From the NCBI GenBank assembly GCA_965178125.1, contig OZ237751.1, positions 248,001 through 312,000 of the forward strand: a DNA stretch of 64,000 nt, read 5' to 3'. A program made the translations under genes and the position numbers. The stretch is from Bilabrum cf. latius (taxonomy: Eukaryota). The notes under the pieces are model-generated. The model saw only the letters and a list, made by a program, of their open reading frames with translations. It was not told where the DNA came from and did no database searches. Each line of letters opens with the position of its first letter. Position 1 is the first letter of the stretch. Shown here piece by piece: positions 16,852 through 64,000 of the stretch.

Positions 16852-17066
16852 CTAAACTTCAACAAATGCTGCAGCTACTTGAATCTGCACTTGGGCACCA
16901 GGTTCGCTTGTGATTAGGAACGTTCTTTGTCAGGCTTGCCACACAAAACACATCTTTCACGTGTAGCGTTCGGAGCGGCGATTATTGTACATTCATTGTC
17001 AACGTTTTGTGTTAATTAGAAAATATTCAACCTTCACCTGGAAGATCAAAGGATAGGCGTGAAGAT

Positions 17067-39661: not shown

Positions 39662-39964
39662 AATGACAGCATTACAACGAAAGCACCGGTCAACGCATGA
39701 TTGACTGCTGCAAAACGAGAGTGCCCCATACAAGAAAATCAAAAAAATAGACGGGACCAAAACGGGACTTCTCGTTTTTCCAGCGTCGTGGACGAACATG
39801 ATGTGGCTATCATTCGCCATTAGAAATTTACTGTACTAGCTAGTAATCCTGTCAATGAACGATGCGTTTCGCACGATGGTGGAGGTTCGGTCCGGTTCCG
39901 AGTTGATGAGAAGCCATAAATTTGTCATAGTACAGTTTCGCACAAGCTGCTGCGTCTTCTGTCA

Positions 39965-42061
39965 ATGGAATCAAGCTGCCTTGATAATGTTATTTGCCAG
40001 ACGTGGGCTGCGAAAGCATTTACGCCTGGGCTGTTCAAGACCCCCATCGGAACTATGGAGACTGCTGCGTGGCGGCCAGCTAAACAAGTTGCAGATAGAT
40101 CTCCTTGCGTAAACGCTGTCACCATGACTTACAATTCAGAGCATTATAAACGTAAGAGACCCGCTTCCACTGCTCCAGCGGGGTCAGGACCGAAAGTTGT
40201 CGCGGTTGATGATCTCGGTGGTGCTGCAGTCGTACCGTAGGCTGAGGTGATTCGAGCATTCGACCCCAGTCGCTTCAACTTCCGGAAAGCTAGTGTGAAT
40301 GAGCATATGTTGTACATTGGGCGCGATCGATAGCACGTGCTGTTGCCAAACGTGTCGCCGATCATGCCAATGCATTCATTGCTGGTACCGTCCTGGCGAA
40401 ATGGCCTCGCGCAGAGGCTCAACTTTGCGGCTGCTCATGCTGCACTGCAGCTCCTGTGCTTACCAGTAGTGATAACTCACCCAAAACAGTATCGTGACGA
40501 GCCGACACCGGTGGAGCCTAGGCCGGTAGCCATGCAAAGAATCGCACTGGCAGCCAGCCGCCGCCTCTTGTTCAACTCGCTGTGCGCGTACTCCTCCGTG
40601 AACCACATGCACTTTCACCTCGTGTATGCGTGCGAGATGGCTCGCTCCAGAGCGGGCTTTCCTTCTGATGGGACCGCTGCACCGACACGTGCCAGCGAAG
40701 CGGGTACCAAAGCTGTGGAACACCCACGAGGCCCGGAGAAGGATGCAACCCTCGAGTCGTGTGAAAAGCACGACGCACCGGTGTATACCTACAGGCCCTC
40801 AACCGGCACCCATATCCTCCCGATCGAGCGAGCGAGTCCCAGGGTGATCGCGAAGAGGAGCCTCACGAGACGGAGCACTTGCTCGGGGGCGAGCGTCTGC
40901 ATCGAGCTTGCCCTCGGTGTGACGAGCACGGCCGACTGGCCCCTCCCTTCCCTGGTGCTCCTTGCACGCCCCGTTCCGGTGTCCACGCGCCGGTCGACAC
41001 CGCTTGCACCGGGGACATCGGAGACAGGGCTGGCGGCGCCGCCTCTTGGGTGCGGTCCCGGTCCGTCGCTTGGGTCCGAGAGCGGAGCGAGGGGGTCAGA
41101 GGGGGGGGCAGCGGGGAATGCTGCAGGGGGGGCTGCAAGAAGTCATGAAGGGGGGGCAGGGTCTGGTGCTGCAGTGGAAGTCGTCTCTGGTTGTGCCGAC
41201 GAGTGGCCCATCGATCCGTCTGCCCCCATTCTAGAGGTAGAGGTAGTGGCATCCAGTGCAGGGGCAGGGCCAGCATCATCAGGCTCGGGTGGAGGCACTG
41301 GCAATGGCAGCGGAGCTGCCCGTGTTCAGAAGGCAGGTGCTCATGATGCGGGAGAGGCTGGCTTCGCTTCGGCCGAGTCGTCGCGGTCCGGTGGATGGGA
41401 AGTTGCCGCCAGATCTCTATCCGAGTGGGTTGGTGCGGTGGCAGGCGCGCTGGGGGAGGCAGGGGTGGCTCACAACGTGCTGATGGCAGGGCCTCAGGCA
41501 CCGCTTGCCCCGCTGCAGGCCAAGGACAAGGGCAAGGACAAGGACAAGGGCAAGGGCAAGGACAAGGACAAGGACAAGGGCAAGGACAAGGACAAGGGCA
41601 AGGGCGCCAGTTCCGCAAAGCTCATTTCGTCGGGTGAACAAACCGGCAGTGGTGGGGAGAGGGATTCGACCCTCGGGGAGCTTAAATCGTCGGAGTTCCG
41701 CGGGGCAACTGCTGCTGCCAGGGGGTCTACAGGCCCGACTGAGGGCGGCGGTACGGGCGATGGCAGCGTCGATGCTGTTTGGTGGCACGGGGAGGGGAGC
41801 GGCTGGGCGCGCGCTCACATCATGCTGCGGAGGCCTCAGCTAGGAAGCGATGACACGCAAGCTCGTGGAATGGCGGTGGCGGTGGCAGAGGGGGTGGGTC
41901 TCGCCATCGCGAACCGGCCTGATGCAGCGGACGGCAGCCTGGTGGGCTGGGGAGACGTCGGCGAGGCAGTCGAGCGCCTGCTCGGAGAGGCTGCGCTTCC
42001 CGCCAGCATGGTGGGCGAGTGGGCTGGGAAGGCAGCAGTGCTACTTGAACTGCTCAAGTAA
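39965..42061 (+). CDS. GDPGP1: GDP-D-glucose phosphorylase 1 / VTC2-like HIT-family protein
   Basis: YNSEHYKRKRP, FDPSRFNFRK, LLPNVSPIMPMHSLLVP, LAQRL, FNSLCAYSSVNHMHFH (HIT motif), AHNVLM. In-frame TAGs at 40238 and 40331; ends at TAA 42059-42061. Low-complexity (KD/KG)n tract at about 41521-41605. Confidence 0.8.
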
Positions 42062-42151
42062 TCTCCAGGGTCGTCGTCGGCATTAGATCTAGGCCTAGGC
42101 CTAGGTCCAACCTGATTTCGGTTCCGAGTCATTCAACCCAGAACACCAAAA

Positions 42152-45100
42152 ATGAACTTCAAACTGAAATTTTGCCGTGCCACGCCTAGTTTATGCACTG
42201 CAACGGAGAATATGCAATGTATTCAACCCGATGTATCCTTGACGACTCGCGGCGGAGCCATTTGCGATGTGTTTAGCGACCACTGGGTGCAAAGAGTTGT
42301 TGGAATCGGCCAGACCGAACTGCTTGCTGCCATTGACGCATTGGAGCCACGCGAATCGGGTACGAGTGATCAGGATAAGGATACAGCAGGAATCAGCAGC
42401 AGCGAGGCGTTGATTCGCGTAAAGACCTTTTGCGAACGTGTGTGCCAAGAAGACACCGTTCCTGCTGTCTTGGCAGGTCAAGCCGTCGCCGCACTGTGCG
42501 CAATCAGCAAATGTAGACCAGCTACAATATCATCTGCGCATTCCATATTTGCTCGTCTCGCTGGCGAGCTTGCACAAGTTGCATACGGCGCTGCTGGCGG
42601 CTCGCAGCAAGATCGCATTCTCACAGCGTGCGCTTGCGTAGCCATTGCGCACCCAAGCCTTTTACTGGCTGTGCAGCCAGCAGCCATATACGAAGACTCC
42701 ATCGAGATTCGAATGACTAAGGGCGCTATCTAGGCGGATGGATACGACGCGGTAGAAGGCGAGCCCTCAAGCGGAGAGCCGACTGGAAGCGAAGACGGCT
42801 CAGGCTTTGAGAATTCTGACAGCGACGATTGCACCGACTCTGACGATAAAGACTCAACTTTGCCGTTTCATGGACCCCGCTTGGCGATCAAAATGTGCCA
42901 GGCGGTGCAGCGGGGCTTCTCCTCGGCTGCTACTAGCTGGCCTGCCCCTGCGGCGCGCCGGCTGAAGTCTCGCGGCTCGAGCAGATCCACTAGCAGAGCC
43001 CGCATGGCCGGCGCCTTGCAGCCATCATCTATGCCGGCATCATCTATGCCGACATCATCATCATTATCGCCGTGCAGAGCGCGGTCGCATCTTGCCAAGT
43101 GCAGGTGGCTGAGATCGATGGGCGCGGCACTGAAAAGTGTGTGCCGGATCGCGCTGTCCAGGCGGAGTCATGGGGTGGAACTGGCCTTCCCGTTGCGAGT
43201 GTCCGAGGCTGACGCTGTGCACCACGCTCTGCTGCAGGCCGTGCTTAAGGGGCTGCGGGTGCTGCGACCTGATCCGTAGAAGCACGAAGGGAGACCGGCA
43301 GCTGCAGCGAGCGAGCAAGGCACAGCACCATCGAGAGCACAAACTGACGGCACGCCCAGCAGCAGCGCTGCGGAACACGAGGACGGCTCAATGGTTTCGA
43401 TCGACCTCTTGGTAGACACAATAGAGGATCTGAGAAGCCTAGGGGGTAGCGAAAGGAACGCAGCTGACGATTCGGCCGGCTCGGCAAAGCACAACGCTGC
43501 AGCTGCTGCTGCGGCTGCCTTGCCAACGTCGGTCGTACGTCGCAGCACGCCCGCCATTATCGCCGCCTAGCAGGATGTATCCCGACATTCAGACGCTATT
43601 TCGTCTCTTCGAGACCAAATAAATTCCCATGAGCTTGCGATAGAAGCGCTTCAAGCAGGAATACAGGAGGAATCTGCTTCGATCGAGCGCGCCGTCATGG
43701 CAGACTGGCAGTGCACGCGAGAGGCTGCCGTTCGCGAAACTTACTCGCCCGTGCCAGATCGGCGCGCCTGCTCCGACCAATTGTTGAGTGACCCATCCTC
43801 CGGACCGGCAGAGGGGGATCTCGCTCGTGCCACATTAGATCCAGATGTACCAGCTGCCGCAGCCTCGCCAGAGCTTCGCCAGCCTATGTAGCGACCTGCA
43901 GCCAGAGACCCTCAGGCTGCTTTCGACTAGGCTCGCCACATCGTGGCCCTCTCGATCGATGATACAAACAAGCGCACCAAGGCAGTGAAGCAAGCATGCC
44001 ATCAGTTTCTGCAGGACGCCATTTCGGCAGCCAGGGCGGTTCCGGCGGCGATTCAGCGAGCCGCTGCAGAGAAGCAACTCGACGGGCCCGGTGAACGCGA
44101 ACACGGGGCTGGCACTTGTGACCCTGGCCAAAGTGCACATTCTGCGATCCATTCTGGGATCCCTTCGCCGCGTCTGTTGTCCGGGCACGGTTTCGCAGGG
44201 GGCGCCAAGCTTGTGGACGAGCACCGTGGGCTGTTTCTCAAGACGCCCGACGACTCTCACGGCATCTACGGGAGCCTCGTGATGGCTGGCAAGGTCATGA
44301 AGCTGGAAGCAAAAGCATCAGAGGCTGTGCATGACATGGCTTCTGCGCACATCAGCGCCCCCCTTACGGTGGTATTGGACGTGCCCTGCAGCTCCAATGC
44401 GACGGGACAGACGCAGCGAGTGCAGGTCTAGGCCAAGCTACCGGTGGTACCGTCCACGCTGCGCATCGGATCTCCGGACGGAGGAAGGACCGTTCACATT
44501 GATCGATATCAGGGCGACTAGGTGGTAAAGCCACTAGCCCAGTGGTTTCACCTCGCTCCAATGCGACTTGCAGGGGTGCGCAGAACGAACAGGCACCAGT
44601 ACCAAAGTGGCAATCCTTTTTCGGGAGATGAGGATGATGATAGCACCGATGGAAGTAGAGGAAGGAGTAGGAAATCGACTGGCTCTTGGAAATGGAACAG
44701 GCCGGGGCAGACGTGCGCGACATCTGCGGCGCGTATGAAGCAGCTGCCAGGCTGCCGTTGGACATGGGCATCGAGCACCTCGTGTGGCGGTCGTCCGCGA
44801 AGCTGGACGAGGTGGTCAAGTTGGTCGAGGTTTCGAAGGAGTATCGGATCGCAAAACACGTGGAGTCTGTGCAAACGTTAGAAGACAAAAAACCTGGTGG
44901 CGCTACCACTCTACGTTCTGGCGACGCGCCGCGCGGCAGCTTCGGTGGGTAGAGGGCGCCAATTCGCTCGGCCTTGCACAGAAGCGACACGGTAGCTTCG
45001 TCCGCTGCTGTGGAACACCAACTACCGTTTGATGTGGAAGTGCACCAGCTGCCAACCGGTCAGCGCATGGTACTGGACACGCACCGGCTGCTGATGCCAG

Positions 45101-46920
45101 ACCAATCATGGATCCAATGGATGAAGCAAGACCCGGCAGCGCACCCAAGGGTGTGGGTGTTGTGTCGCACACCACAGGCAGCCGAGTCCCACAAAAGCTT
45201 GGTGCGCTATGCTGGACAGTTTACTCGTCATGTAACCTGGCCAGAGTGGATCTCGTCGACGCCAGGGGCCAGAGACAGCAGAATCTCGGAGATTCTTGCA
45301 CAGGCAATGTCAGTGTGTGTGAACGCTGGAATACTGGACACCAGAGGCCAGTTTGAGCTGCACTCGCTACACATTGGGGCTGGATGCGCTCTGCTGCGCT
45401 CCAAAGCCTCGTCCGACTCCAAAAGAGAGCCACCGGTTCTGGCTGTTGTCTCCTGCCCGTCCTGGTATTGGGGCCGATGCTCCGCTCTTACTGTCCTGAT
45501 GCCTCCAGAAGCAGCCGCGATTGCCAGGCAGCTGAAAGATGCCGAGGGGCGCCCCCTCGGCCCAGTTGCACCAGACTGCATGCTGAAGGTGGGGAGCAAG
45601 GAGGCTCGGCCCCAGGCGCAAGCCCGACTGTTGCAGGTCACGGCTGCCCTGCAGTCACCAGATCGGCTGGCTGCCGCAGCCAGGGCCCTTGCTAGCATTG
45701 ATTCTGCAACTGCTAGTTCCGAGCAGACAGATGCAGCGGTGCCACCAATGGAGCTCTTCCGAGGCACAAGGTCCTAGGCAAAACGAGAGCTGCGGGCCCG
45801 CGGACTGTGCATGCGGCACTTGGGTTGCGTGCACGCAGCGGCAAGCGGCGATGGACTGCCACCATCGGTCATGTGGCCCTGTATTTTGCCCTCCAGGCAC
45901 AGTCCCAGTGGCTAGGCCCTCTGCAGCTGCATTGAGGCAGCAGCATCGGCAGTGGGATGCGGCGACAAGGGAGGTCTCGGCTCATCTCCGGCGACGTTGC
46001 GCGCGGGCGTTGTCGAATCAGCCGGGGCTGCAGTGTGCGTGAGTATCGCGCGTGCCTTTGCGGCCCGTGGTGTCAGCGTGCCGGCAGACATGCGCGCTAC
46101 TGAGCAAGTCAGTGCATGGAGGTCATTTGAGATCTGCATGCCGTCGAACCACGAGGTAGTTGGTTTGGCTGCAGCCCTCAGCGGTGGCCTCAGCCAGCGC
46201 GAGGCGGACGAGAGCGGTACTGATTGGAGCCACAAGGAGGGCGCCGTTTCCGAGGTGCTGCATGAACTGCGGCACGTGTAGCATGTGGGCGGCTCGGGCG
46301 AGGTGAAGCAGCAGCCTCACCTCGCCCGTCTCGGGAGCCGGGGAGCCGAGTACCGGTTGCTGGCACTGCGCGCTCTGGCTCGAGCTGGTGCCCTATGCAG
46401 CGCCATGCAGAAGGAAAACAAAGCTAGGGCACTTGCTGGCGAGACTATTCCAGCGAATTGCATCACAGCCCCCTCCTCCCAGCTGGGCCCCATGCAGTGC
46501 GACGAGGCCTCTGCCGTGGTGCTGGAGCTGTCTCCAGAGCAGGCGCAGTCCATCAACGCGGGTCGACTAGAGGAAGACATCATGGCTGGGGGCCAGCTGG
46601 TGCTCAACTACACGGTGGAGGGGTTCCGCCCCTCTGCGGGGACGTGGGAGCCCCTCCCCTTCGTGCACGGGGCCAGCGTGGGGTACCGCGTGGTGGATTT
46701 CTACGACGGCAGCGGCCCGGACGCGGGGGAGTTCAGCCCCGGTGGGGAGGCCTACGTGGGTCACGATGGGAAGGAGCTCAGCCGAGAGGCCGTCGGTGCT
46801 GGCGGGAGCCCTCCGCTCTCCGGGTTCACGAAGGTTCGCTTCCGCTGCACCGCGGCACGGCAGGAGCCCGTGCAGCTGAAGTGGTTTGGCCTGTACAGCG
46901 CTACCAGGCCGTCGGCCTGA
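42152..46920 (+). CDS. Clu-domain protein (paralogue A) with an apparent frameshift near 44641-44670 and a non-TPR C-terminal beta-sandwich domain
   Basis: Clu-like motifs GLFLKTPDDSHGIYGS..AGKVMKLEAKA, PLTVVLDV, RVQV(TAG)AKLP..TLRIGSPDGGRTVH, LPFDVEVHQLPTGQRMVLDTHRLLMP, ELRARGLCMRHLG. About 11-12 in-frame TAGs. The frame changes between ORFs 44522 and 44686. Ends at TGA. Confidence 0.65.
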
Positions 46921-47166
46921 GCGCCCCAGGTGGCAGGGGCGGCCTGCCTCTTGCCGCGCGCGCCAGCGCCCGCCCTTCTCTAGCGCTCTCCGCACCACTT
47001 CGTATCAGCACGGCCTAATGACTTTGATCCGCCAAACAAGCCGGAATTGTATGCTTGATTTAATTATATAGCTGTCGAGTTGTCGCTCCGATCGGAGTCG
47101 CTGAGGGGGCATTATTCGAACGGCAATTTCGCCACCTGGCACCCGACGCAGTTCATACAAATTGCC

Positions 47167-48099
47167 ATGGCTGCCTCGTCAGGCTCTGGAGGTTCGTACG
47201 CGGTATCTGCGGATGCAGCTCGACGAGCGCTAGATTGCAAGACCGAAGGGAATAGACGATTCAAGCTGAAAAAGTATCGAGCTGCGATAGAAAGTTACAC
47301 TGAGGCAGTTGTACTCGATCCACGGATGGTCTCTGGTTTTACAAATCGAGCAACATGCTATAGAAAGCTTGCGGAGCCATCAATGGCGGCAGCAGATGCC
47401 CGGAAAGCCATTGCGCTTGAACCGCTGAACGGGAAGGCCCACTACTTGCTCGGGGCGGCGCTGGCAGACTCCTCTAAATTAGATGAGGGCTTGGCAGAAC
47501 TAGAGCGGGCCGTAGAGCTATTGAAGCGCTCCAAAGCGTCCGGTGCCATCGTGGATCAATGCAGAGCCGAAATTGCCAAGCACTCCAAGAGGCGCATGGA
47601 AGAAAAGGAAGGCGGCACTCGGCTTCGCGAGTGCATGGCAATGGAAACAGTGCACTCGATAGCGCAGCAGCTTGTTCGCTTGCGATCCTCGGGCGAGAGG
47701 GCAGGAAGCGCCAGCGGAGGTGCCGCCTCGCGGGCTGCCAGTGGAGCGGGGCCTGACGAAGAGTCGATCTCGGCCGCTTTGAGCACGCTGCAGGCTGCAG
47801 TGGACGAGCGGGCGGCAGCCGTGGCCACCCGCGAGATCCCCGACTATCTCACCTGTGGCATCAGCATGGAACTCATGTCAGATCCCGTGGTCACTCCCGC
47901 GGGGCACTCGTACGAGCGCAGGCACATAGAGAGATACCTGAGGAACCACAAGCAGGAAGACCCGAGGACGAGGAAGCCACTCAGGGTATCGGACCTGCGC
48001 CCCAATCTGGCCCTCCGCGAGGCCATCGAGGAATTCGTCAAACGGAACCCGTGGGCTCTCAGCGAGATGGCGGGCGTGGCCGACCACGTGCACGGGTGA
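47167..48099 (+). CDS. STUB1: E3 ubiquitin ligase CHIP (TPR plus U-box)
   Basis: TPR region CKTEGNRRFKLKKYRAAIESYTEA...NRATCY...KAHYLLG. U-box IPDYLTCGISMELMSDPVVTPAGHSYER...DPRTRKPL...LRPNLALREAIEEF. Ends at TGA. Confidence 0.93.
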   Translation: MAASSGSGGSYAVSADAARRALDCKTEGNRRFKLKKYRAAIESYTEAVVLDPRMVSGFTNRATCYRKLAEPSMAAADARKAIALEPLNGKAHYLLGAALADSSKLDEGLAELERAVELLKRSKASGAIVDQCRAEIAKHSKRRMEEKEGGTRLRECMAMETVHSIAQQLVRLRSSGERAGSASGGAASRAASGAGPDEESISAALSTLQAAVDERAAAVATREIPDYLTCGISMELMSDPVVTPAGHSYERRHIERYLRNHKQEDPRTRKPLRVSDLRPNLALREAIEEFVKRNPWALSEMAGVADHVHG

Positions 48100-48714
48100 G
48101 ATGCATGGGCTCTCAGCGGCGATGGCGAGGACGATTGCGATGGCGTTTTCGCGTGGCTGTGGGCAGCGCATTGCAAGTAGGGCGATGCGTTGCGTCTGTG
48201 CAAGTAAATCTGCACGAGCAAGCCACTGGCACTAGCTTGCAGCTGCGTTGCATATCTCGCTGGATGCTTCGCATCGATGGACGGATCCAAGGCAAGGATA
48301 GTCCGTGGCTGCTGCTTCGCCTGCTTGCATGTACCGTGGTAGCAGTGGAGTGATCGGTAAGCCGGGAGATAATAGAGCATGCAACAAGGTCCCAGGGGCA
48401 CTGCAGGGGTGGGAACACATGCATTGCACGACCTGATGGTCCGGGTGGTGGGGTCCAGCCAGAGAGGGCCTCAATCACGGGCTGGCCGGCTGCCAACCGC
48501 ACCCGGCCATCATCCATAAGTGACAACGCATGCACTATTGCCACAGGGCGGACACAACCCTATGGGGGCCGCAGACGAGGGCACGGGGGCGGCGCGGAAC
48601 GAACGAACGAACGAACGAATCTTGATTTTCGAGCAATCGCGGAGGCTCGCGGCGGAGCGAAGGTTCCGTGCACCCGCGGTGATTCTCTTTTCCGGGGACA
48701 TTTGTGCAGCAGCC

Positions 48715-49892
48715 ATGGACTGGCGAGAGCCCGCAATCAATGTTCTGGCTGGTGGAATGAGTGGTATGTGTGTAGACTCTGTGCTGTATCCATTGGATAC
48801 CATCAAGACCCGTCTGCAAGCTCGCAGTGATGCAGCAGCCGGGAAGGCAGTACAAAGCACTTCGAAGCAGAAATCATTTACCGCGTTTTATAGGGGTAAG
48901 TGCGCACTCAGTATCTACATCTTCTCTTGTTATAGCTCTGTAAAATCTCGCTGCGTTTCTGTGGGAGTCTCTCGTATCTGTCGACTCGCGATTCCGTGCA
49001 CAACTGCCGCGTGCCGATCTCGCTCGCAGGCCTAGCATCCGCAATGGCGGGCTCGTTCCCCAGCGCGGCGACATTTTGGACCGTGTACAAGGGTGCATAG
49101 TCTCGGCTGCTGCCGTACGTGGAGGGTACTAGCCTGGAGCCGCTGGCTCACATGGGAGCAGCTGCTGCAGCTGACGTGTGCGTCTGCGCTGTTCGAAACC
49201 CATTCGAGGTGGTCAAGCAGCAGATGCAAGTAGGAATGCACAAGTCTGGGATGGAAGCGGTGCGAAGCATCGTGCGAGCGGAAGGCGTGAGCGGCCTGTT
49301 CGCGGGGTACATCTCGACGGTCTCGAGGGAGATCCCTTTCGACGCCCTCGAGTTCGCCATGTACGAGGCCATCAAGAGGCAGGTTAGGCTCAGGAAGGCG
49401 GCCAGCATGGGCATACCTGGGGGCGGCAAGAACGGCGAGCGGCTGCCCGAGCTCGTGCTTTGGGAGAACAGTCTGGCGGGCAGCTTCGCGGGGGGGATTG
49501 CGGCAGCGGTCACCACACCGCTGGATGTGGTGAAAACGAGGCTCATGACACAGTCCTCGTCCGATGCCGGCAGGTACAGGGGCGTGACGGACGCGCTGCA
49601 GAGGATAGTGAAGGAGGAGGGGGCCTCTGCTCTCTTCCGTGGGATCGGGCCTCGCGTCATGTGGATCTCGCTGGGGGGGAGCATCTTCTTCGGGGCGTTT
49701 GAGGAGCTGTCTAGGAGGATGAGAGGGGCCCTTGGGCTGCAGGTGGGTATGACTGCAGGCGCAGGGTACGCGCCATAGGACGACAGCTCCAAACCAGGGT
49801 CGGCTTCGGCAGGGGGCGTGGGCAGCGCGGGAGCAAGTACCGCCGGTAACGGTAGCAGTGGCACTAATCATAGCGATACGGGAAGAAGATAA
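48715..49892 (+). CDS. SLC25A26: Mitochondrial carrier, S-adenosylmethionine carrier-like
   Basis: Three carrier signatures YPLDTIKTRLQ, NPFEVVKQQMQ, TPLDVVKTRLM, plus GSFPSAATF, REIPF and PRVMWISLGGSIFFG. Intron 48896-49029. TAG at 49098 lies inside the carrier fold, another at 49776; ends at TAA 49890-49892. Confidence 0.88.
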
Positions 49893-50037
49893 TGTTATTT
49901 GGGATTCCATTTTATCATCTGAGGTATTTCCAGTCCGCTGCGACCACATCGCGCCAGATTCCAGAGGTTGCGACCGCTCCAGAAAATCCGTTGTGCGGCC
50001 CGAAAAGACCACGTTTCTGTCCGAGGAAGGAGCAGTC

Positions 50038-51513
50038 ATGGACGCGGTTGCTAGAATATTGCAGCAAAAGACCCGTTCGGGCAGAAGGGGTAGCGTTTCT
50101 TCTATGGCCTCGCGCTCCACACGTGGCATAACCACGCGAGAGGCTGGCAAGAATCGCTGGCAAGCGCTGATTGAGGCGTTCCTCACTGCGCTTCGAGACA
50201 TTTCGGATAGGGTTCCAGCTGATGACGAAATTGAAATTGCTCGGCGATACTTGCAAGAGTTGGAGGATAAGACCCGAACTGACCACCTGAGATCTATCAA
50301 CGACACGGCCACCACTCCGCCTACAGAGCTCTAGCAGCAAGCACGGCAGCTAGCTGCTGCCGAGAAATGCATTTACGTTTGCGCCGCCGGTGAGATCGAC
50401 AAGGTCAAGGCAATCGTAGAGAAAGATTGGAATATGGTGCACCAGGTGGACCGCGACGGCAACACTGGCCTTCATGCTGCCGCGGCCATGAACCACGTGG
50501 CGGTCGTCAAGTATCTCCTCGGTAAAGGCGCAAATCCAAACAGTCAGAACTACAACGGATACACCGCGCTGCACTGGGCCATCGAGAACAACGCCATCGA
50601 CGTCGCGAAGCTCCTGCTCGTCGACATCCCAAAGCTGCTCAAAGAGACCCAGTCAGACTAGCAGCGCGCGCGGAAACTCGCTGCGGGGGACATCAGCGAA
50701 CTCAGACACCAGTCTTCCAGCGCCGCTGCAGGCGGGGCGCACGCAATGGGCGGTGCTGGCGCTGGCTTGCAGGCCGGGGCCCAGCCTGCTGTGCCCACGG
50801 GGGCACTGGCAGCCACTGGCTACGAGTCTTCCGGCCCTCCAGGGATGGGCTCCATCGCTCCCTCGGGGCGCAGCGGCCGTCCCACGGGCGGCGCTCGGCT
50901 GATGGCCGCCGGCGCGATCGACAGGCCATCCACCAGACCCGTGCCTCCGGGCGTGGCGCCTCCGACCCCCCGGTCCGTGGGGCTAGGGGTGCCGAGGGGC
51001 AGGGGCGGGCGCGGTGTGGCACCTTCCAGCAGCGCTGCCGTGACGGCGCCCGCGGGGCTGTCTGTGGGGGCGGGCGGCGTGGGGGGGGGCATACCCGTAT
51101 CCAGGACTGTCCCTTCGTTGGGGTCAGCGAGTGCGGCGGCCGCGGGTGAGACAGGTGGGCATGGCCTCACCGGATCCCAGATGCAGCTGATCGGTGGCAC
51201 CGAGCGCGGGGCGGAGGCGGAGGAGGCATCCATGATCGACGTGGCCGGGCGGGTGGTGGTGGACCCTGCAGTGAGGAACTCGGAGGGCGTGACGCCGCTG
51301 CGGATGGTGAGCTTCCTCAAAGAGAAGCACCAGGGGCCCATGAGGGAGCTCTTCAAGGAACACAGGCTGCTAACGGATCCGGACTTTGCCGCGGCAGAGG
51401 CGGAAAGGGCGGCAGCAGAGCGCGAGGCGAGGGCGAAGGCTGCACGCCGTGCTGGCAAGGGCGGCAGGGGGGCGCAGCCTCTCGGCGCATCGAAGCGGCC
51501 GAGTGTGTACTGA
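50038..51513 (+). CDS. Ankyrin-repeat protein with a long Gly/Ala/Pro insertion
   Basis: DRDGNTGLHAAAAMNHVAVVKYLLGKGANPN, NGYTALHWAIENN, RNSEGVTPL. One frame through TAGs at 50332 and 50659; ends at TGA. Confidence 0.78.
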
Positions 51514-51697
51514 TGATGGCGATTGAGTTGCCGCTCCGGCTTGCTGTAAATGCAGTTTTTCGTTTATCGCGCGTCGCTCTGTACTTGCCGATAGTCAACG
51601 GCCCGAGCACTTCACTGCCAGTGGGCATCGCCTCTGAATTCCGAGTCTCAGGTACCTTTAGCGACCAGTAATTGCTGTGGTTCTGTCCAGGAAGGAG

Positions 51698-54600
51698 ATG
51701 ATCCCTTTGCGTGAGCCATTGTTGCAGAAAAGAGGAATTCCAACGAACAAGGTCATCGCCAAGGTCGAAGGAGCTGGAGCAGCGATCCTGCCGTCGCAGC
51801 TCAAGCAGCTGAAAGCTGTTTGTGACAGCCTGTAGTGCGTATCAAAGCCCAAAAGGCTTGATCCTGCGCATATGAGATTTATTTTTGCAGAATTGCGGGA
51901 AATCGAAGCTGTCCCGGTGGCTATTCGTCTAGATCTAGTTCGAGCTGCAGCGGTCGTATCGACGACAAATCGACCTGAGATCGTGCGGAGCGCCATTGAA
52001 CTGTTGGACGAGTCGCTTGGCATTTTGAATGATCTCAGTCAGTCAGTTGGCGCTCGAACTATTGCTTGTGATCTTTGCGCGTCTCTTGTAGCAAGTAGTA
52101 CCGATGATGATTGCCACGTACCGGTTGCGCTCGACCTCATCGCTAGCGGCGTCAGCGTCATCTAGCCACCTGAAGAGGCTATGCTTGGCTCTATGGCATA
52201 GCGTACCAAGCTTGCTTTAGCTGGAGCTCGTCTGCTGGCAACCATTGCGTGGTGGGTGGGGAGCACAAATGCAAGCAAGTTGAGCGCAGCAGCCACAAAG
52301 CTTGCGCTTCAATGCCGACTCTGCATTCAGCAAGATTTATGTCGGGATCCTCATGATCGTCTGCCTGGGGTGCGGTGCGCACTAGTTTTGGCTCTAGGCA
52401 CGGTATGTTGCTCCAACGAAGAAGTTCGGCACTGTGTGGTCAAAGACGACAAGTTTATGACAAGCCTGTCCTCAGAGGTGGACCAACAAAGCAAAATCGA
52501 TGGTAGGGATGCATGGAGGGGTGCAGCTGCCGGTTCTGCTCGCGATCTCGATCGACAAGCCAGGCAGGCAGAGAGAGAGCTCCACGAGCTGCTGGTTGCA
52601 GGGCCGGCCAGCGGCCTCGTAGCCCGCGACGCTCCGGCTTCCACTGCACCAGTGCCAGTGGCTGGCTATGCTGGGGCCCAGACCAGCTCGGCAGCATCGG
52701 CTAGCACGTCTGGGGCGCTAGCGCCTTCGCCAGTGGCTGGCTATGCTGGGGCCCAGACCAGCTCGGCAGCATCGACTAGCACGTCCGCGGCAAGGGTGCC
52801 AGCGCCAGCACAAGCACCAACACTATCACCAGTGACTGCGACAGCAACAGCTGGGGCGGTTGCTCGGCATGGTCAAGCAGAATCAAACAACAGGGCTGCG
52901 CTCGAGATGTTCAACGGACTGGACGAGGTGGCACCAGTGTCTAGAGGGGCGGGTGGTGCCATGGATCCAATACGAGGCGAAGGAAGTAGCTTCAGCTCCA
53001 GTCTAGTTGATTTCATCGAGGGCGACCAAGACGATGAGAAGGCGTGGGATCCCCAGGTTGAGTTCGATGAGGCCAGGCAGAGCGTGTCCCTGTCCGTGTA
53101 CGAGGAAAATCAGAGGCAAGCTGCCATCACTGGAGTAGGCAGACGGTTCCAATCGCATGCTATGGAGGCAGCCAGAGGTATGCCAGCACTTCTTGGACTC
53201 GGGCAGGTCATCTCGGAGACAACAGACGCACATATGCCGGTGGCTGCGCCTGCAGATCCGGTGGATCCACCTGGTCGCGTGCTACCGGCATCCGGAGCTG
53301 GTGCAGGCGATGCCCACAGCCCAGATCGCACCCTTGCAGACGTTGTAGCGACAGCAGGTCTCGTCCGAGTGGCTGTCGGGGGTGAAGCAGGCGGGGCAAA
53401 AGCAGAACACAAGAAGTTTGGGCTATTCCTCAAGACCCCGGAAGACAGGTTTGGCATGTACGGTAGCGAGGTCATGGCGGCCAAGGTCATGAAGCTGGAG
53501 ATGAAAGCAGCCAGGTGGGTGCATGAGATGGACTCTGTACATGCCGGTGGGGTCCTGACAACCGTGATAGATGTGCCTTTTGTGCGCGCTGAACCTGAGA
53601 TCGGGGATGCATCCGGGGCTGGTCCCAAGTCCCGGGTGCCTGAGGTGGGCGGGGTGCAGCGGGTCCAAGTCTAGGCAAGGCTGCCGGTCGGAAGCAGCAC
53701 GCTACGATACGGATCAAATGACTCCGGGAAGACGATCCACAAAGACGCTGAGCTCCACAGCGATGTTGTAGTGCCCCTCATGGATCACTTCCACCTGCGA
53801 TCCATTGGGCACTAGCACAACCAGTGCAAGAATATCGTTAAGCATTCGTACGAAGCGCGTTGCCTATCAGAACCTGGTGGGACCAGCTCGGGCGCCGCTG
53901 TCGCTGCCACTACCGCTGGCTCCATGGACGGGCTAACTCGGAGGCGGTTCAACCTGCGTGATGAACTGCGCTCCGCTGGTGTCGATGTTGCAGAGCTGGA
54001 CAGCGCTGCCATCCCTTCTGACTTCGGCGAGGATTCGGTCGACACGATGATTGCGGACAGTCGCGCACTGCTAGATTACGCTGTCGAGAGTGGCACTGTT
54101 TAGCACAAATAGATCGAGTTGCAAGCAGCCACTGCACGGCGCAGCGGGTTGGAGTGCGATCCGTGGAACTGTGTGATGCATGCCTTGCCCTTTGATGTCG
54201 AGGTGCATCAGCTTCCTTCAGGGAGACGGATTGTGCTCGACAGTCACCGATTGCTCATGCCAGACCTCCATTGGATTGACTGGATGCGATCACAGAACGC
54301 CCTTCCTCGCGTATACGCATTGCACAAGGTCACTACTGAATCAACGTAGGTTGAGGCTGCAGCCGGCGCAATGCATGACAGCACGACGGCAGTAGATCCG
54401 GCTGTCGGTGAAAGCGAGTCAACAGTACCCCCTCTACAAGCGATCCCAGCCACCAAGTCAGCATTCTCGTTGAGGGTCCAGGAAGGGGTGCTCCCGGAGC
54501 ACATTCCGTGGGATTCCACAATGAAAACAGCCGCGCCTGCTGCAGTGCAACACTGGGCCGAGAGTTGCGGCGTATTACGTGGAGGGGCAAAAGTTTGTCT

Positions 54601-57600
54601 GCATCTCGGATTCAGGGGAGCAGGCCTTGTCTTTCTTTCCGCCGAGCAGTTGGATGGATCTGGCGTGCTGTTTGTGCTGGCATGCCCGGCCTGGTACTGG
54701 GGCAACTTGCCCGAGATAACGTGCTTATTCCCGCCAGAAGCTGCCTCAGTAGTCAAAGAACTCAGGGATACCGATGGCAATGTCTTGCCCCGCGTCGCCC
54801 CGGATGCTGTGATGCAGAATGGAATGGATCCCGATGGTCAGCACAAGGCCGATCTCAGGCTCGTGTCAGCGGCTCTGTGCAGCGAAGTCTAGATGTGTTC
54901 GGTGCACGCTGAGATACTCAGCGAATTGGACAAGCAGCAGTTATCAAATCGCGATCAAGCTGCACCCTGCAGCTCTGGCAGGTCATCATCCACGTGGAAC
55001 TCTTCAGCATCATCTAGCTTTCCAGCTGCATCTTCGCAGGCGCTTGAGAACATAGCCGGCTTCGGCTCTCGTCTATTTAGTGCTAGGCAAATTGTGAAAG
55101 GTGTTTTGAAGAAGTACGGTCTATGCCTTAGGCACTTTGGCATGCTAGTTGAGGCGGTTGAGAAGAACAATTGGCGCGAACTCCCCCTCATTGTCTTGGT
55201 TGCGTGCACGTTGCCTCGGGCGATGTCGCCTGCGGGACACGAGCTTCAGTCAGCGATCAAATATGCCACTTCTTTGTGGAGCAACCAGCAAGCAGGGAGG
55301 GGCTGTCTCGCTGCATCGATTGGGTGTATGCCACCTCAGCTGCTCAGAATTTGTGCCGTGGCTCGAGGGTATGCAGCCAGGGGGTGTGCCGGCCGGTACG
55401 GCACTTTGGACGCAGATGCACCACTGGTCGCCGAGGGTGCTGCCACTGAGCCACTATTGGAGCTGCTAGTGCAATGGCATCGCGAGCAGCAGGATACGTT
55501 GGGATCTGCAGCTGGCTAGTCCGGTGACATACCTTAGGAAGCCGGCCAAATCACGCCACACATGCGCACAACAGCTGCCGCTGGCATCCAGCACGCCAGC
55601 AGCTCTGGCCCAGTAGTCCGTAAGCTGGACGGGTCGATTGACCTGTAGCACGGTAGAAAGCAACTCGATCGGATGCTTCGTGAGCTAGCTCATGTGCAAC
55701 GTGTGGGTGGCACGGCAGAGCAGCAATTGCTGATGTCAATTTCGCTGCTTGGCCAGCGAGGCGCCGAGTACCGGCCTCTAGCGCTGCAGTGCTTGATGCG
55801 AGCAGGTGGCCTTTCCCTGCTTGCACAGGAACACGACTGTTCGAATTGGCCGCGAGTCTATAAAGAGAGAGAAGTTGCAGCGGAGCTCGCCGCACTAGGA
55901 TGCATGACCGCATCTGCAGGAATCCTTGAGCGAAAAGTGACAGATACGGGGGCAGAGGCAGTTATGGTGGGTTGCAGCCTAGCAGATATCAAAGATAAGG
56001 TTGGAAAGCCTGAGGAAGCCGTCAAAATTCTGAAGGGGTGTTTGGACGCGCTGCTGTCTAACGCGGACTCCAACGCTCGGTTCGTTGCCATCATTCGGCA
56101 CAACATCGCAAACTGCTTGTTGCGAGCCGGACAGTGTGTTGAAGCTATTCCGTTCTTCGAGCAAAGCCGGAAGGGAATGGAGAGCTTGCGCATGACCACG
56201 CACTCTGCGTACTGGAATTCCCTTCACTGCCACGCAAATTGCTTGTTTCAGCTTGGGCGGATGCCGGAGGGAGAGGAGCTGTACAAGCAGTGCTTGGAGG
56301 GGACGCGCAAGCACCTTGGGCCTGACCACCCGAAGCACTTGGACATCCAGCAAAACTACGCATCGATTCTCATTCTCAATGGATGTAGCTCAAAGGCTTT
56401 GAGTATATTAAGGAAGGTCGAAGAGGCCCAGGTGCGACTGCTTGGCAACGGAAGCTTGTTGACCATTGACACGAGCGTTCGGCTGTGCAGGTGCCTTGCC
56501 GCCCTGGGAAGGCACGATGAGGCAGTGGCTACAGCCGATCGGCTTATCCCAGTTGCCAATCAATCGCTAGGTGTGTCTCACCCCCACGTATTCATGGCTC
56601 GGTTGACTCGAGCGATGGTTTTGACGGTATCGCGCCGATGTGCGGAGGCACTCCCTGACTTACGATTGGTCGAGAAGGAAGCGGTCGTTGCACTCGGTAG
56701 CGGCCACACCCTGCACCTTGAGGCAATACTTAAGTAGGCTCACTGCCATGAAAGGTTGGGGCAGATTCAAGAAGCGTACAACGCCGCAGCGAGGTTCAAG
56801 AGCTGCGCTGATCCGAGCCGAATGGATCGACTTTATGTAGAGGGCATTACTGCCTTTGCGTACTATGCATTCACGCTTCGAGACTTCGAGACAGCCAAGC
56901 AGGAAATATTGCGAATAATGCCCGCAGCTCGATAGCTCTTTGGGTAGGAGAGCCTGCGGTACTGCAAGAACTAGAGCCTGCATGCCGCCTGCCTGCGAGA
57001 GCAGTGGCTGCTCACGCGCGACTCATCCAAGATCACGCAGGCGTGCGACATCTTCCTGCAAATCATTGCTTTGATGCGCAACTTTGTTGACGTGAACGAC
57101 TCTGACCTGATGGAGACAATGGGGAACTGTGTGTTGTGCCTCGCGGACGCCGGGCGGTATGCAGAGGCTCTGCCCCTCGCTCGCGAAAGGTGCGCGTGGG
57201 ACCAGAGGGAGTACGGGAAGCTGTCGCCCAAACTTGAACCTATGTTAGAGCTGCTAAATGAGTGCCATCGAGGGCTCAAAATGTCCGCGGGGGCACAGAG
57301 TGCTCAGTCACAGATTGGGCAGACGGTGGGTGAGTTCAGCACCTTGGATAGCCTGCAGCGCGGGTCTCAGGCTGCTGCTATGCTACTGCAGGCGAACAGG
57401 GGAGAGGAATCCGTGGCCATGTTCTAGAAGTGCCTGCAGGGTGCCACGAGTCTTTTTGGCGCGACAGATCCGAACACTCTTGCTGTGAAGTAGAATCTGG
57501 CTGCCGCTCTCGTGTAGGTTGGGCGGTCTCGAGACAGTTGGAAGCTGTTTCGGGAGTGCATTGGCGCCTTGGAAGCGGAAGGTCACTCACTGCAAGCAGC

Positions 57601-57883
57601 AAGTATTCGATTAAACTTTGCAAATAGTTTGCTTGCTGCAAGCAAGTACGGCGAGGCTCTCGAGTGCCTAGAGCACTGCATCCGGGTGCTGCCTCGAGAG
57701 GATCCTTGTCGGGTGGAGGCCTCAATCTACGCCTCCCGGTGCCATGAAGGACTCGGTGACCGCGAGAAGGCGCTCGCAGTCATGCTAGAGGCTCAATTTG
57801 CTGCGCAACAGGTGCTCGGATCAGCACATCCACACACGCTGTCCGCTGCTCATGAATGCGAGCGACTCATGGGGGGATCGTAA
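51698..57883 (+). CDS. Clu-domain plus TPR-repeat protein (CLUH-like architecture; paralogue B, about 2061 aa)
   Basis: KFGLFLKTPEDRFGMYGS..AAKVMKLEMKA, VLTTVIDV, RVQV(TAG)ARLPVGSSTLRYGSNDSGKTIH, LPFDVEVHQLPSGRRIVLDSHRLLMP, VLKKYGLCLRHFG, then kinesin-light-chain-type TPRs (LGPDHP, LGVSHP, LGSAHPHTL). A single frame with about 19 TAGs; ends at TAA 57881-57883. Confidence 0.8.
52655..52785 (+). repeat. Two-copy internal duplication (75-bp period) encoding PVAGYAGAQTSSAAS(A/T)STS
   Basis: CCAGTGGCTGGCTATGCTGGGGCCCAGACCAGCTCGGCAGCATCG(G/A)CTAGCACGTC at about 52655 and 52730. Confidence 0.85.
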
Positions 57884-58145
57884 ATTCAATACTGCGCTGT
57901 CGACATGCGCAGCATCTCAGGCCTGCGAGCTGTCCGGAATGAAGAGGATGCGAATGATTTAATTCAACGCCATTGATTGATGGTGTTAGGAGAATTTGTT
58001 AGCCTTTGCAACGACGAAGCTGCCATACTTTTGCAATCCGTAAAGTCTCAGACAAAATGTCCTCATTGGCCCGAATCCACTCGACATTAATACTCTTTTC
58101 GGCCTGCGCGCCGCATTTTCCCATACTCAGTATCGGACGCAGGCC

Positions 58146-61052
58146 TCACGCCAGCTCGACGGCACTTGGCTTACGCAGCGAACACTCTGACGAGAAATGA
58201 ATAGCCAAGACCTGAGCTTGCCACGCGTCCAAGCGCACCCACATCCCTGGTGGCAGGTGACCTGCACAACCTCCCGCCACGTCGATGAAATCCCGCCAGA
58301 TCGAGTTGACTGGACGCACATACATGTTCTTTCCCTTATCAACGATCGTGGATACTCCAGCTCCGTGAAGCTGCTCGACCACAGGGACTACTGTGTCCTC
58401 AAATCGAATGCTGGCGCTGTCGCCAGAAGCAGCCGCGAGGCACTGATTGAATCCGAGCCCAGGGGGGGCCAACTGATCTGGTCCAGGCTCTCGGCTTGCA
58501 ACAGCATCACAAGCAGCTGTAGGCCAGCTTCCATCCTCAGCTGGCAGCCTCGTGGCATCGGTATGCACCTGCGTGGCAGAGCCAGGGCTACCATCAGTGC
58601 CAGCGCTCCCGATCGGTAGATCCACTATGCTCGCATTGGACGCGCTCGCGCCATCCTGTACAGGCTTAGACCGCTCGTACAGAGCTTCCCGCCAATCCAA
58701 GAAAAACTCCGCGGGGCGGCTGGATAAGTTCACCAGCACAAGGGTGGCTTGTACTGCCGAGTAGTCAGCTCGAGCTCCACCTGGCTTCTCGCTAGGCTCC
58801 ATCAGGGGGCTATCGCTCATGTAAGACCACGCAAGCATGGCCATTACGCGATCAGGGGCATTCATTGCATCACGTGACTCACCGCCGGAACGGACAGGCA
58901 GGTAGGTACGGTACCCACCGACTATTTCAGGACGCCGAGCAGCTGCGAGCAGCTAAGCATACACGCGCCGCGTAGGCTGGTGCACCGGCTCTGGATGCCG
59001 CGCTCCATCTGCATGCATACTGTGCTTGATGAAACGGCCGCTCATCTGCCCATCATGCACAAAACGAGCGCCACTGCATCCTATGAGCGCAGCTACAGCG
59101 CAGGCGAAGTGCGGAGTGAAATGGCTCGGTATCGTGACACCCGTCGAGGCATCTATTGATTTAGCGAGCGGGCCGAACATGGCTGCAGCGCGTTGCTCAT
59201 CGTGATTCTCCAGAAACCTCACGCAGCGCAGAGAATATCTAGCATCTGCGCCGCTAATGTGTCCCAGCACGCTTTGGCTTGCCATCCCTGTAGCCTCTCC
59301 AGGTGCCGCCCGCACGGCGGTCAGTAGCCGGTCATAGAGCTTCTTATCATACGTCCAGTCAAAACCACAGCGCTGCAGCAGATACTCGGTGTCAGAATAT
59401 GCTTCTGCCATGAAGAAGAAAGCCTCGTCGCGAGGTTGAGGCCGAGGCTTGTCGTCAACAACCTCTTCTGCAACGCCAGCTGGTGCCAGCGAGGGCGCAC
59501 TGCCAGTGCCGGCACGACGAGCGCAATCACCAAACTCAGCACAATCATCGGTGCATCTTGCCCCACTTGCAGGTATTGCAGAGGCTGCCTAGCGAGCAGC
59601 CCGAACGGCAGTTATGGCTACAGGCCAATACTCGGCAAGAACGTCTGCAGAATCGGCTGCGTGGCCAGCACCGCCTGGATATGAGACAACCGTGCGTGCT
59701 TCGTGCAGGGAGAACGGGATGGAATCAGCAGCATATGACCACCAAGGTGCCGCGGCAGACTTGCTCGTTCCGGTGGATACTGGTGCTGTGTTTGGTCCCA
59801 CCGAAGGTACTGCTGGTTCGACGTCGCGGCCATCTGTGCGCCGATCCTCCTCACTTCCCTTAGAGCCAAGCTATGGGCCATGGCCCACCGATGAGGCCGC
59901 TGCGATACTATCACGCGCAATACTTGACATTTCTTGTTGCCATTGCAGCACCAAGTCAGCTTCGTTGATAGGCTCGTCAGACCCGGAGGACGTTTCTCCA
60001 TCGGAGCTACTGGCCGCTGCAGGGGCAAGAACTCGTTTGCGCGACTGTACCAGTTTCCGCATGCTAGCAAGGGCTGCTTCTCTCTGCCCTTCCTTCCAAT
60101 CCTAGTTGCCGAGTATCTTGCCGCTAAGGCACGCCAGTCGCTGCCCATCCGGCTGATGAGCAGACCACGCGGCATGAAACCTCTCGTTGAGCTGAAGCAT
60201 CGCCATGTCGCAACGGACGCCATCTGCGAGGCCGCGCCCGTCGGGCCCGTAGCAAGCAATTTTAAGCAGCACGCGCAGCATCCTTCGACGCAGGTCTGTG
60301 CTAAAGTAGTTGAGCTGCAGCGTGTCGTGCCAGGCCGACCGGCCGCCCTCGCCACCGTGTGCGATGCAAGCAATTGGGACCCTCCGGGTCGCTGGTGACG
60401 AGTCGCTGCCATCCAATGTCGAGTTTTGTTTGCGCATATGCATACTTGGTTCCTCGTGCATGCCAACAAACGGCGGCATTGCCTGCAGCAGCGAGCCCGG
60501 GGATGGCACTGCTGGCGCAGCCGAGCTACTGTGGGCCTCTGTGCTGCGCGGCGCAACTTTCGTCGGATCAAACCACGCCCCGGCACTTCTTTGTGTAGCT
60601 AATTTAGCCCCACCGCGATGGGTGCCTACTGGCGCACTTATTGCGCAGTGCCGCAGCTGGATCCCGAGTGGATGATCCGCAGCGAGGTGATTCGGTATGA
60701 AGTCTAAGATCAGGCGCAAGCCCACTGCATTACAGCGTGCATGAAATCTATGCATGGCAATATCACCCCCGAGGGACTCTGCGACGCTGTACTCGTAAAC
60801 AGCGAACGGGCTCGATGCAGGAGCTGCGTGGGCAACCTCGGTAGCGTCACGGACTGCTGCAGCGGAGTGAGCCAGTCCAAATTGCCCCGTCGTCCACACA
60901 CCAAGCAAGTATAACATTGTGAAGCCTGCTCCTGCAATGCTTGCCAAATACTCAGATGGTATGTCATCAAGAGTGCTGGGGTTGCCCGATGCAGCTTCAA
61001 GTCGGTGAAGCAAGCTAGATGCCCGGACCTGCAACACCATCGGACTGGACAT
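58146..61052 (-). CDS. Glycoside hydrolase family 13 (alpha-amylase fold), uncharacterised bacterial-type subfamily; intronless, about 968 aa
   Basis: TLDDIP, LYLLGVW, SPFAV, LGGD, LILDFIPNHLAADHP, WHDTLQLNY, DGVRCDMAML (nucleophile D), FMAEAYS (acid/base E), GFDWTYDKKLYDRL, RFLENHDEQRA (third acid D). TAGs at 60102, 59871, 59589 and 58953 separate these motifs; ends at TGA 58146-58148. Confidence 0.85.
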
Positions 61053-62343: not shown

Positions 62344-64000
62344 ATGTCAGCTACGGCTCCTGCTTCGGGAGGAAGTGATATTCTTGATACTATATGCCAG
62401 CAGCGCGGGCTAGATGTAGCGAGTGCAAAGGAGAAAGTCCCAGTAGAGGAGTTGATCGCAAGGCGGGATAGCAAGTACAGTCCGGACAGCATCAGAACGA
62501 TCCTGGATGTTTGCAAGCAAGGAGCTCCTGGGGGGATGGTTGCAGCTGAGTTTAAGAGAGCGTCTCCTAGCAAGAGTGATATCGCGTTGGGCCTCGATGT
62601 TGCTGGTAAGAACAGTATCTCCAGGGCCGCATACGTCACGACCATTGGCGCGGTACCAATCTATGATCTGTCTTACAGTCTTTTTCGCAGAACAAACACT
62701 CAAGTACGCCAGGGGGGGTGCCACCGTTCTTAGCGTGCTAACTGAGCCCAAATGGTTCAAGGGATCGCTTGTAGACTTGGAGCTAGCAAGACAGTCCAGC
62801 GAGGCTGCGCTAGGCAAGTCTCGGCCGTGTATGCTTCGGAAAGACTTTATCATTGATACGTACCAAATCGCCGAGGCCGCTGCATTTGGTGCAGATTGCG
62901 TGCTGCTGATCGTCTCGTGGCTTCGCACTGCCGACAAGGTGAAACCACTGATCGAGTACTCGAGGTCGCTAGGAATCGAGCCTCTTGTTGAAGTTCACAC
63001 AGAGGATGAAGCAGATGTAGCCCTGGCTAGCGGTGCCAAGGTGATTGGAGTGAACAACCGCAACCTGAAGACGTTCAAGGTTGACCTCGGCACCACGGGC
63101 AGGATCGCAGCCCACCTCGCGAGGTCCCCCGGTTGCAACCTCGCGAGGAACAAGGGCGAGGACGGCATCCACGTCATCAGCCTGTCTGGGATCCGCAGCG
63201 CCGACGATTTCGGCGACGTTCTGGGAAGCGCCGAGGGCCAGCCAGTGAGGGGCATACTCGTGGGCGAGCACCTCATGCGGGCAAGTGATCCGACCGAGGA
63301 GGTCGCGGGGCTGCTACGGGGGGTGAGTGAGAAGCTTCGCGCCGCGTCGGTGTCGAGAGACGGTGGCGGTACTGACGCTGCAGCCGCGGAAGTGGCCGCG
63401 GCCGCGGCCGCGGCTAGAGAATCGGCCAGCTTGTGCAAGGTGTGCGGGGTGCGGAGGGAGGAGGACGCCATGGCGGTTGCAACCTCTGGATCGGATCTGC
63501 TGGGTCTGGTATTTGCGACCAAGTCGCCCCGCTGCGTGACCGTGGAACAGGCCGCCGCGATCGCATCCAAGGTGCGCGCCTATCGAGAGCAGGACCCGGC
63601 ACCCCTCTTGCGCACGGCCCGAGGGTGGGCCAGCCACGCCCTGCGGGGAGACGCTGCTGCCGTGGGTGTCCTGGCTGCAGATAGCCCCGGCGCGTCGTCT
63701 GGGGCCGCGGCCGGTGGGGCCAGTGCAGGTGCAGGTGCAGGTGCAGGCTCTTCGTCGGGCGGAGCCGCTGCCGCTGCCTCCCTCTCGTCCACTGATATGG
63801 CTGCCGCAGCCACAGCGATGCTGGCCTGGCAGCACGGCATCCAGCGGGCCAGTGCTCGGGCCAGGCCGCTCGTCGTGGGCGTGTTCGCGGGCCGGACCCC
63901 AGAGCAGATCGCCGCTGCGTGGGCGGGCAGCAGCATCGACGTCGTGCAGCTGCACGGGGGCGAGGGGCCGGATCAGATATCAGAAACCGCACGCTACATA
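62344..64000 (+). CDS. trpCF: Indole-3-glycerol phosphate synthase fused to phosphoribosylanthranilate isomerase (TrpC-TrpF); 3' end runs off the window
   Basis: IGPS motifs AEFKRASPSK, LSVLTEPKWFKGS, LRKDFIIDTYQI, GADCVLLIV, PLVEVH, IGVNNRNL, LVGEHLMR. PRAI motifs CKVCGV, LLGLVFATKSPRCV, VVGVF, DVVQLHG. Intron 62606-62690. Confidence 0.92.

Follow-up and report, generated by a model that had tools for sequence, protein, structure and literature searches.

Glutamine as the best-supported meaning of UAG in a GC-rich, intron-poor stretch of eukaryotic DNA

We analysed a 64-kb stretch of DNA, positions 248,001 to 312,000 of contig OZ237751.1 (assembly GCA_965178125.1; in the following "the window", to which all coordinates refer), whose long open reading frames (ORFs) contain in-frame TAG codons. 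TAG is near certainly a sense codon in this DNA. The window very probably represents nuclear DNA of a GC-rich, intron-poor eukaryote in which UAG changed its meaning from stop to glutamine, with UAA and UGA retained as terminators. Glutamine is the best-supported residue as judged from sequence comparison, namely from Gln, Gln and His at the corresponding positions of a close relative and from the preference of the Pfam CLU profile, together a small sample. A previous inspection of the letters without database searches, here called the sequence-only reading, had already proposed glutamine. This assignment is supported by our analysis, mainly due to the relative's protein fragments and the CLU profile and not due to the arguments that were brought forward originally.

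TAG as a sense codon

In the 15 segments taken as coding, comprising 14,586 codons, 76 in-frame TAG but no internal TAA and no internal TGA were counted, whereas the two remaining frames contain 238 TAG, 82 TAA and 501 TGA per 29,142 positions. Since the ORFs were delimited by TAA and TGA, the two zeros are partly circular, and termination at TAG was undetectable by design. The absence of internal TAA and TGA is meaningful nevertheless, because the ORFs reach lengths of up to 3385 codons, which is beyond chance. With the standard code, ORFs of at least 300 amino acids (aa) have a summed length of 15,526 aa and the longest has 2188 aa; when TAG is read through, these values rise to 33,636 aa and 3385 aa. 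Reading through TAA instead gives a small gain, to 17,333 aa, and reading through TGA leaves the longest ORF unchanged but yields many additional short ones, which GC-rich DNA would lead one to expect. Alignments of the DISP1 homologue and of the bromodomains to solved structures continue uninterrupted over TAGs. In the counted genes TAG makes up about 12% of the glutamine codons (76 TAG, 415 CAG, 135 CAA) and 0.5% of all codons; the genes for CHIP, the IGPS-PRAI fusion, the NDK-domain protein and a GT64 protein as well as the 2188-codon FG-GAP ORF are free of TAG.

The TAGs are also present in contigs from sequencing runs. The independent contigs of run X1 match the window exactly. Run X5 contributes contigs (54278-55768 and 55778-57951) that show no difference from the window over many TAGs, with the reservation that X5 is labelled "probably DNA", so that their origin from transcripts is uncertain. 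Runs X5 to X7 do contain RNA-derived sequence, because the intron of a mitochondrial-carrier gene at 48895-49028 is removed in contigs of X5, X6 and X7, unlike in X1, where it is retained; none of the listed runs is recorded as RNA. This intron is the only one directly demonstrated in the 20 kb compared with the run contigs (39920-59900). Within the same region no polymorphism was found at TAG sites, all long pieces of X1, X5, X6 and X7 being identical to the window.

Residues of a close relative at TAG positions

The most direct evidence for the residue comes from a BRWD/PHIP-like ORF on the plus strand (17016-27173), which encodes WD40 repeats and two bromodomains in 3385 codons, contains 24 in-frame TAGs and ends with TGA. 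When the C-terminal 1001 residues of its product were compared with a representative protein library, short proteins with 86-95% identity to the window were found, and the comparison of the whole ORF with shorter proteins gave at least two fragments among the matches listed. Blastp identities of the fragments to the window are 83-96%. These short library proteins are clearly parts of one gene, the relative's counterpart of the BRWD/PHIP-like gene, which a gene caller with the standard code had divided. Three TAGs of the window are spanned by them (an asterisk stands for TAG in the motifs given here): the TAG in GGRGS*RMRGR (23538-23540) is His in fragment P0152, the TAG in WQLAD*AMVPS (24651-24653) is Gln in the same fragment, and the TAG in PAYLA*IPVPM of bromodomain 1 (26013-26015) is Gln in two versions of the relative (P0002 and P0170). 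At the last site, the relative's Gln is located inside a perfectly conserved stretch, despite Val or Ile in the majority of distant bromodomains.

The weight of these three residues was estimated with substitution rates counted over six non-redundant fragments (1444 aligned columns, 90% identity to the window overall). In these columns a Gln of the window faces Gln in 52 of 58 cases and His in 2 of 58, and a His of the window faces Gln in 1 of 29. Relative to TAG as Gln, the log10 likelihood of observing Gln, Gln and His is -1.4 for His, -4.0 for Lys, -4.3 for Arg, -6.0 for Glu, -6.3 for Leu and -7.3 for Ser. Glutamine is thus favoured 26-fold over His and at least 10,000-fold over every other residue, the rates being taken from the same alignments.

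Fragments of the relative also end exactly before two other TAGs of the window. One is the TAG in IRDKA*KGKY of bromodomain 2 (26613-26615), immediately before which P0002 and P0170 end, and the other is the TAG in SVAMF*KCLQG of Clu-like paralogue B (57425-57427), immediately before which P0154 and P0171 end. Since the relatives have in-frame stops at the places of window TAGs, they presumably use the same code. P0056, a protein of a more distant relative whose identity is 43% over all 275 alignment columns and 67% over the matched stretches in the library search, ends at a CAG of the window, which fits TAG as Gln, although the end of a contig is possible instead. A metagenome scan with P0056 detected one ordinary BRWD/PHIP-like gene (L001) of another eukaryote on a 5132-nt contig with 49% G+C; it consists of a single long ORF without internal TAG and has Ile at the column of TAG 26013.

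Two Clu-like paralogues

The window encodes two Clu-like paralogues on the plus strand. Paralogue B (51677-57883) is a 2068-codon ORF with 19 in-frame TAGs, a weak CLU domain and TPR_12 repeats that ends with TAA. Paralogue A (42152-46920) is composed of two overlapping frames (42116-45094 and 44641-46920), of which the segments taken as coding contain 10 TAGs. The switch of frame at 44640-44700 could be a small intron, a true frameshift or an assembly error, and no RNA-derived contig crosses it. In blastp the paralogues are 41% identical over 253 columns and 30% over 635. A protein search with residues 560-1100 of paralogue B retrieved no homologue of similar length, and a metagenome scan with paralogue B found no relative.

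Both paralogues have a TAG in the same column, in QRVQV*AKLP of A (44429-44431) and in QRVQV*ARLP of B (53672-53674). The sequence-only reading had matched this shared TAG to a Gln of CLUH (RVTAQSIIP), and the Pfam CLU profile, the reference used here, agrees with Gln. With TAG 53672 translated as Gln, the segment 53426-53803 scores 25.2 bits, and no other residue clearly exceeds the family cut-off of 24. The other residues reach 24.1 (Met), 23.5 (Ile) and 23.1 bits (His and Thr), and the remaining 14 together with the undefined residue X reach 22.1-22.9 (X 22.8, Leu 22.6). In this test 19 residues were tried, with Cys left out, and the margin of Gln is only 1-3 bits. The conservation of TAG at one column in paralogues that are 30-41% identical could result from chance, from descent or from selection at the codon level.

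The alignment of the paralogues themselves is less informative. Among 11 aligned TAG positions (blastp), nine face a residue, one faces a gap and one is a pair of TAGs; the residues opposite TAGs of A are Glu, Asp, Ile, His and Gln, those opposite TAGs of B are Arg, Leu, Gln and Ser, and Gln accounts for two of the nine. BLOSUM45 odds on these pairs put Gln first, only about 4-fold over His and about 5-fold over Glu. The pair ELRHV*HVGG of A (TAG 46279-46281) and ELAHVQRVGG of B (CAA for Gln at 55697), which had been put forward as evidence for Gln, is therefore real and contributes to the weak lean of the BLOSUM45 odds towards Gln, but it was selected from pairs in which Gln occurs in only two of nine.

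Weighing the residue assignment

Several of the arguments originally given for glutamine do not discriminate between residues. The two TAGs in one TPR repeat of paralogue B (57491 and 57515; 57491-57517) had been matched to Gln of other repeats. When the segment 55835-57880 with its seven TAGs was scored against Pfam TPR_12 with 10 of the 20 residues, the order was Arg 151.6, Lys 150.7, Glu 148.9, Gln 148.7, Ser 148.3 and Leu 148.2 bits, followed by Ala 146.4, X and Tyr 145.7 and Trp 141.5, so that Arg and Lys are at the top and the repeat sites say nothing in favour of Gln. The TAG at 26613 in bromodomain 2 had been aligned with a Gln of bromodomain 1; its column in 530 aligned bromodomains is variable (Lys 107, Glu 82, Asp 51, Arg 46, Gln 26), and the match carries no signal for one residue over another. 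Nor is TAG enriched in runs of Gln, as had been stated, since 6 of the 152 flanking residues are Gln, which corresponds to background. The positions on which these arguments were built are correct in coordinate and context on the plus strand (46279/55697, 57491, 57515, 26613, 25155/25158, 50332, 17076, 44429 and 53672), with the exception of 2129, where the plus strand reads CTG-CTA-CTG; the reported CAG-TAG-CAG belongs to the minus strand there, and to an ORF without established coding status. Comparison of the window's TAG columns with Pfam profiles, a check that the sequence-only reading had proposed for the whole genome, gave a divided result, with Gln preferred by CLU, Lys by Mito_carr and Arg or Lys by TPR_12, and Lys, Arg and Gln level over nine sites.

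The following observations weigh against glutamine or limit the evidence for it. Mito_carr at TAG 49098 favours Lys with 39.7 bits (Gln 38.3, X 37.2), and the Pfam gains summed over the nine covered sites are 7.5 bits for Lys, 6.7 for Arg and 6.5 for Gln. Because the three residues are level, distant profiles alone could not settle the residue. Hydrophobic residues stand opposite two TAGs: the column of TAG 26013 is Val or Ile in 50 and Gln in 2 of 81 distant bromodomains, and Ile is opposite TAG 4105 in DISP1. Gln represents 3.9% of the residues flanking TAG, at a background of 3.8%, in comparison to 8.2% around real Gln codons. The direct evidence from the relative consists of only three TAG sites of a single gene, with His at one of the three. 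The relative is known from protein only and its stops may not be TAG; P0152 and P0153 end where the window has CGA (25032-25034) and TGT (56384-56386), codons that a single substitution would turn into TGA, compared with two or three for TAG. Within the 64-kb window, ARAGORN found no tRNA gene, hence no tRNA with the anticodon CUA, and no eRF1 gene was found. A classifier of the TAG residue based on the composition of neighbouring residues was discarded for lack of power, as it called true Gln samples Leu in 17 of 30 cases and Gln in 6 of 30; the Leu-minus-Gln score of TAG, 14.9, is an outlier for Gln and for Leu alike.

Some of these points would suit a reading of TAG as another single residue, that is Glu, Lys, Arg, Leu or Ser, which we nevertheless regard as improbable. 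There are precedents in UAG as Leu in an uncultured rhizarian, as Ser in Scotinosphaera and as Glu in an uncultured ciliate; Lys and Arg equal Gln in the nine-site sums, hydrophobic residues face TAGs 26013 and 4105, and TAG 56735 is, by eye, at position 7 of a TPR repeat, which is usually Leu. However, the log10 likelihood based on the relative is at least 4 units worse for Lys and Arg and at least 6 units worse for Glu, Leu and Ser. In the CLU test each of the five residues changes the score by -0.2 to +0.1 bits over X, in comparison to +2.4 bits for Gln.

A dual or context-dependent meaning, with TAG as Gln inside genes and as stop at some gene ends, or with TAG as several residues, is similarly unlikely. 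Termination at TAG could not become apparent in ORFs that were delimited by TAA and TGA, and in several ORFs a TAG follows 15-27 codons past the terminal TGA, which is uninformative either way. On the other hand, nothing in the window demands a second meaning, the 11 long ORFs listed terminating with TGA (8) or TAA (3), and the relative's fragment P0157 ends at the place of the terminal TAA of paralogue B, the sole ORF end that is corroborated by the relative.

Histidine is a still weaker candidate. It is present in the relative at 23538, one of the three spanned sites, and ranks second both in the likelihood based on the relative and in the paralogue odds. Gln is found at the other two sites, however, and a His of the window is rarely replaced by Gln in the relative. 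His also scores 2.1 bits under Gln with Pfam CLU, neither of its codons is one base from UAG, and it is absent among the reassignments of UAG and UAA listed in the available text of PMC5304391 and PMC11687900 (Gln, Leu, Ser, Glu and Lys). That the TAGs are untranslated, due to pseudogenes, wrong assembly or RNA editing, can be dismissed almost entirely. Neither TAA nor TGA interrupts the ORFs of 2068 and 3385 codons, although the two triplets make up about 2% of the off-frame positions (583/29,142). The independent X1 contigs and the contigs of X5 to X7, the runs showing the spliced intron, match the window, and protein fragments of the relatives are broken off at TAGs of the window.

Other genes and features of the window

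The G+C content of the window is 57-65% (about 60%). Besides the BRWD/PHIP-like gene and the Clu-like paralogues with their TPR repeats, we recognised genes for a Dispatched-like protein, an ELAC2-like RNase Z, CHIP, an ankyrin protein, a mitochondrial carrier, an NDK-domain protein and an IGPS-PRAI fusion. The Dispatched-like ORF is encoded on the minus strand (3446-5725), and in its alignment to DISP1 TAG 4186 is opposite Glu and TAG 4105 opposite Ile. The mitochondrial-carrier gene (48520-49892, plus strand) contains the 134-nt GT..AG intron described above and TAGs at 49098 and 49776. In a comparison of the ELAC2-like ORF with the PDB no TAG was located within any aligned block, and an amylase-like ORF had no match in the PDB.

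The FG-GAP-repeat ORF (32453-39019, plus strand, 2188 codons) has 66 Gln codons and no TAG, although the density in the other genes would predict about 11; it includes a 36-nt repeat in 27 copies (35177-36153), the translation of which is rich in Pro, Ser and Thr. The IGPS and PRAI domains are encoded in a single TAG-free ORF (62456-64000, plus strand) that continues past the end of the window; in the fungal trifunctional enzyme a glutamine amidotransferase domain precedes these two. At 41520-41610, a simple repeat (KDKGKGKDKDKD...) encodes Lys, Asp and Gly. It has partial contig matches in all four runs, with a depth of up to about 2200, and most contig matches of low identity are due to it.

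Comparison with known genetic codes

Codes in which both UAA and UAG (UAR) mean Gln are described for most ciliates, hexamitids, some ulvophytes, oxymonads and Amoeboaphelidium protococcarum (PMC5304391, PMC6299283). They share a stop codon decoded as Gln with the window, but TAA is Gln there as well. In the window about 25 internal TAA would be expected in the 14,586 codons if TAA and TAG occurred in the ratio of CAA to CAG (135:415), none was found, and three long ORFs end with TAA. A UAR code is therefore excluded, because TAA is never internal in the window. The uncultured rhizarian from Lygus hesperus uses UAG for Leu and retains UAA and UGA, with 384 UAG in 71 genes and few in highly expressed genes (PMC5304391). 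As in the window, UAG alone is reassigned, but the residue is Leu and UAG is very common, compared with 0.5% of the codons here. UAG as Leu fits neither the residues of the relative (Gln, Gln and His) and the resulting log10 value of -6.3 nor the CLU scores, 22.6 bits with Leu versus 25.2 with Gln. The window does not fit the code of Scotinosphaera either, in which UAG is Ser (PMC11687900).

Most likely the code of the window corresponds to the known "code 15" type, with UAG as Gln and UAA and UGA as stops, so that the kind of change is rare but already known; the variant with TAG as Gln was named genetic code 15 (PMC9523058). In-frame UAG is found within conserved genes, genes are ended by UAA or UGA, and TAG is opposite Gln in homologues, the latter in a small sample. 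By analogy to other reassignments of UAG or UAR, we propose that UAG would be decoded by a tRNA-Gln with the anticodon CUA, which is one base from CUG, and that eRF1 would no longer recognise UAG and be restricted to UAA and UGA.

We tentatively suggest, at somewhat less than even chance, that the window represents an unreported independent origin of a code in which only UAG became Gln, in a GC-rich, intron-poor, non-ciliate lineage, common to at least two or three related lineages. In the literature, of which our coverage was incomplete and without supplementary tables, no report was found of such a UAG-only code for Gln in a GC-rich organism outside the ciliates. If the suggestion is true, the code would be shared by the organism of the window, by the two versions of the 85-90% identical relative and perhaps by a third relative (P0056), and it would be old enough for paralogues of 30-41% identity to keep TAG at the same column. 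Eukaryotic nuclei in which UAG and UAA are separated in meaning are few; PMC11687900 names the uncultured rhizarian, Iotanema, Scotinosphaera, Protocruzia, some phyllopharyngeans and one other ciliate. Models of stop-codon capture would gain from a GC-rich genome that ends most of its genes with UGA, as a counterpart to the AT-rich ciliates. Since gene callers with the standard code fragment these genes, annotation and phylogenomics of such organisms need TAG as Gln.

The closest known counterparts are Iotanema spirale and certain ciliates. In Iotanema spirale UAG alone is reassigned, to Gln, and UAA is retained as the main terminator (PMC5304391). The window resembles it in that only UAG is Gln and UAA is kept for termination, but 8 of its 11 long ORFs end with TGA and its G+C content is about 60%. 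Moreover, unlike in Iotanema, the Dispatched-like, BRWD-like and Clu-like genes of the window give no sign of a fornicate. The ciliates Protocruzia tuzeti and some phyllopharyngeans likewise use UAG alone for Gln, at 27-54% G+C and with UAA as the commonest stop (PMC11687900). Codon and residue are therefore the same as proposed for the window, which differs from these ciliates by its high G+C content, its very long genes and its few introns.

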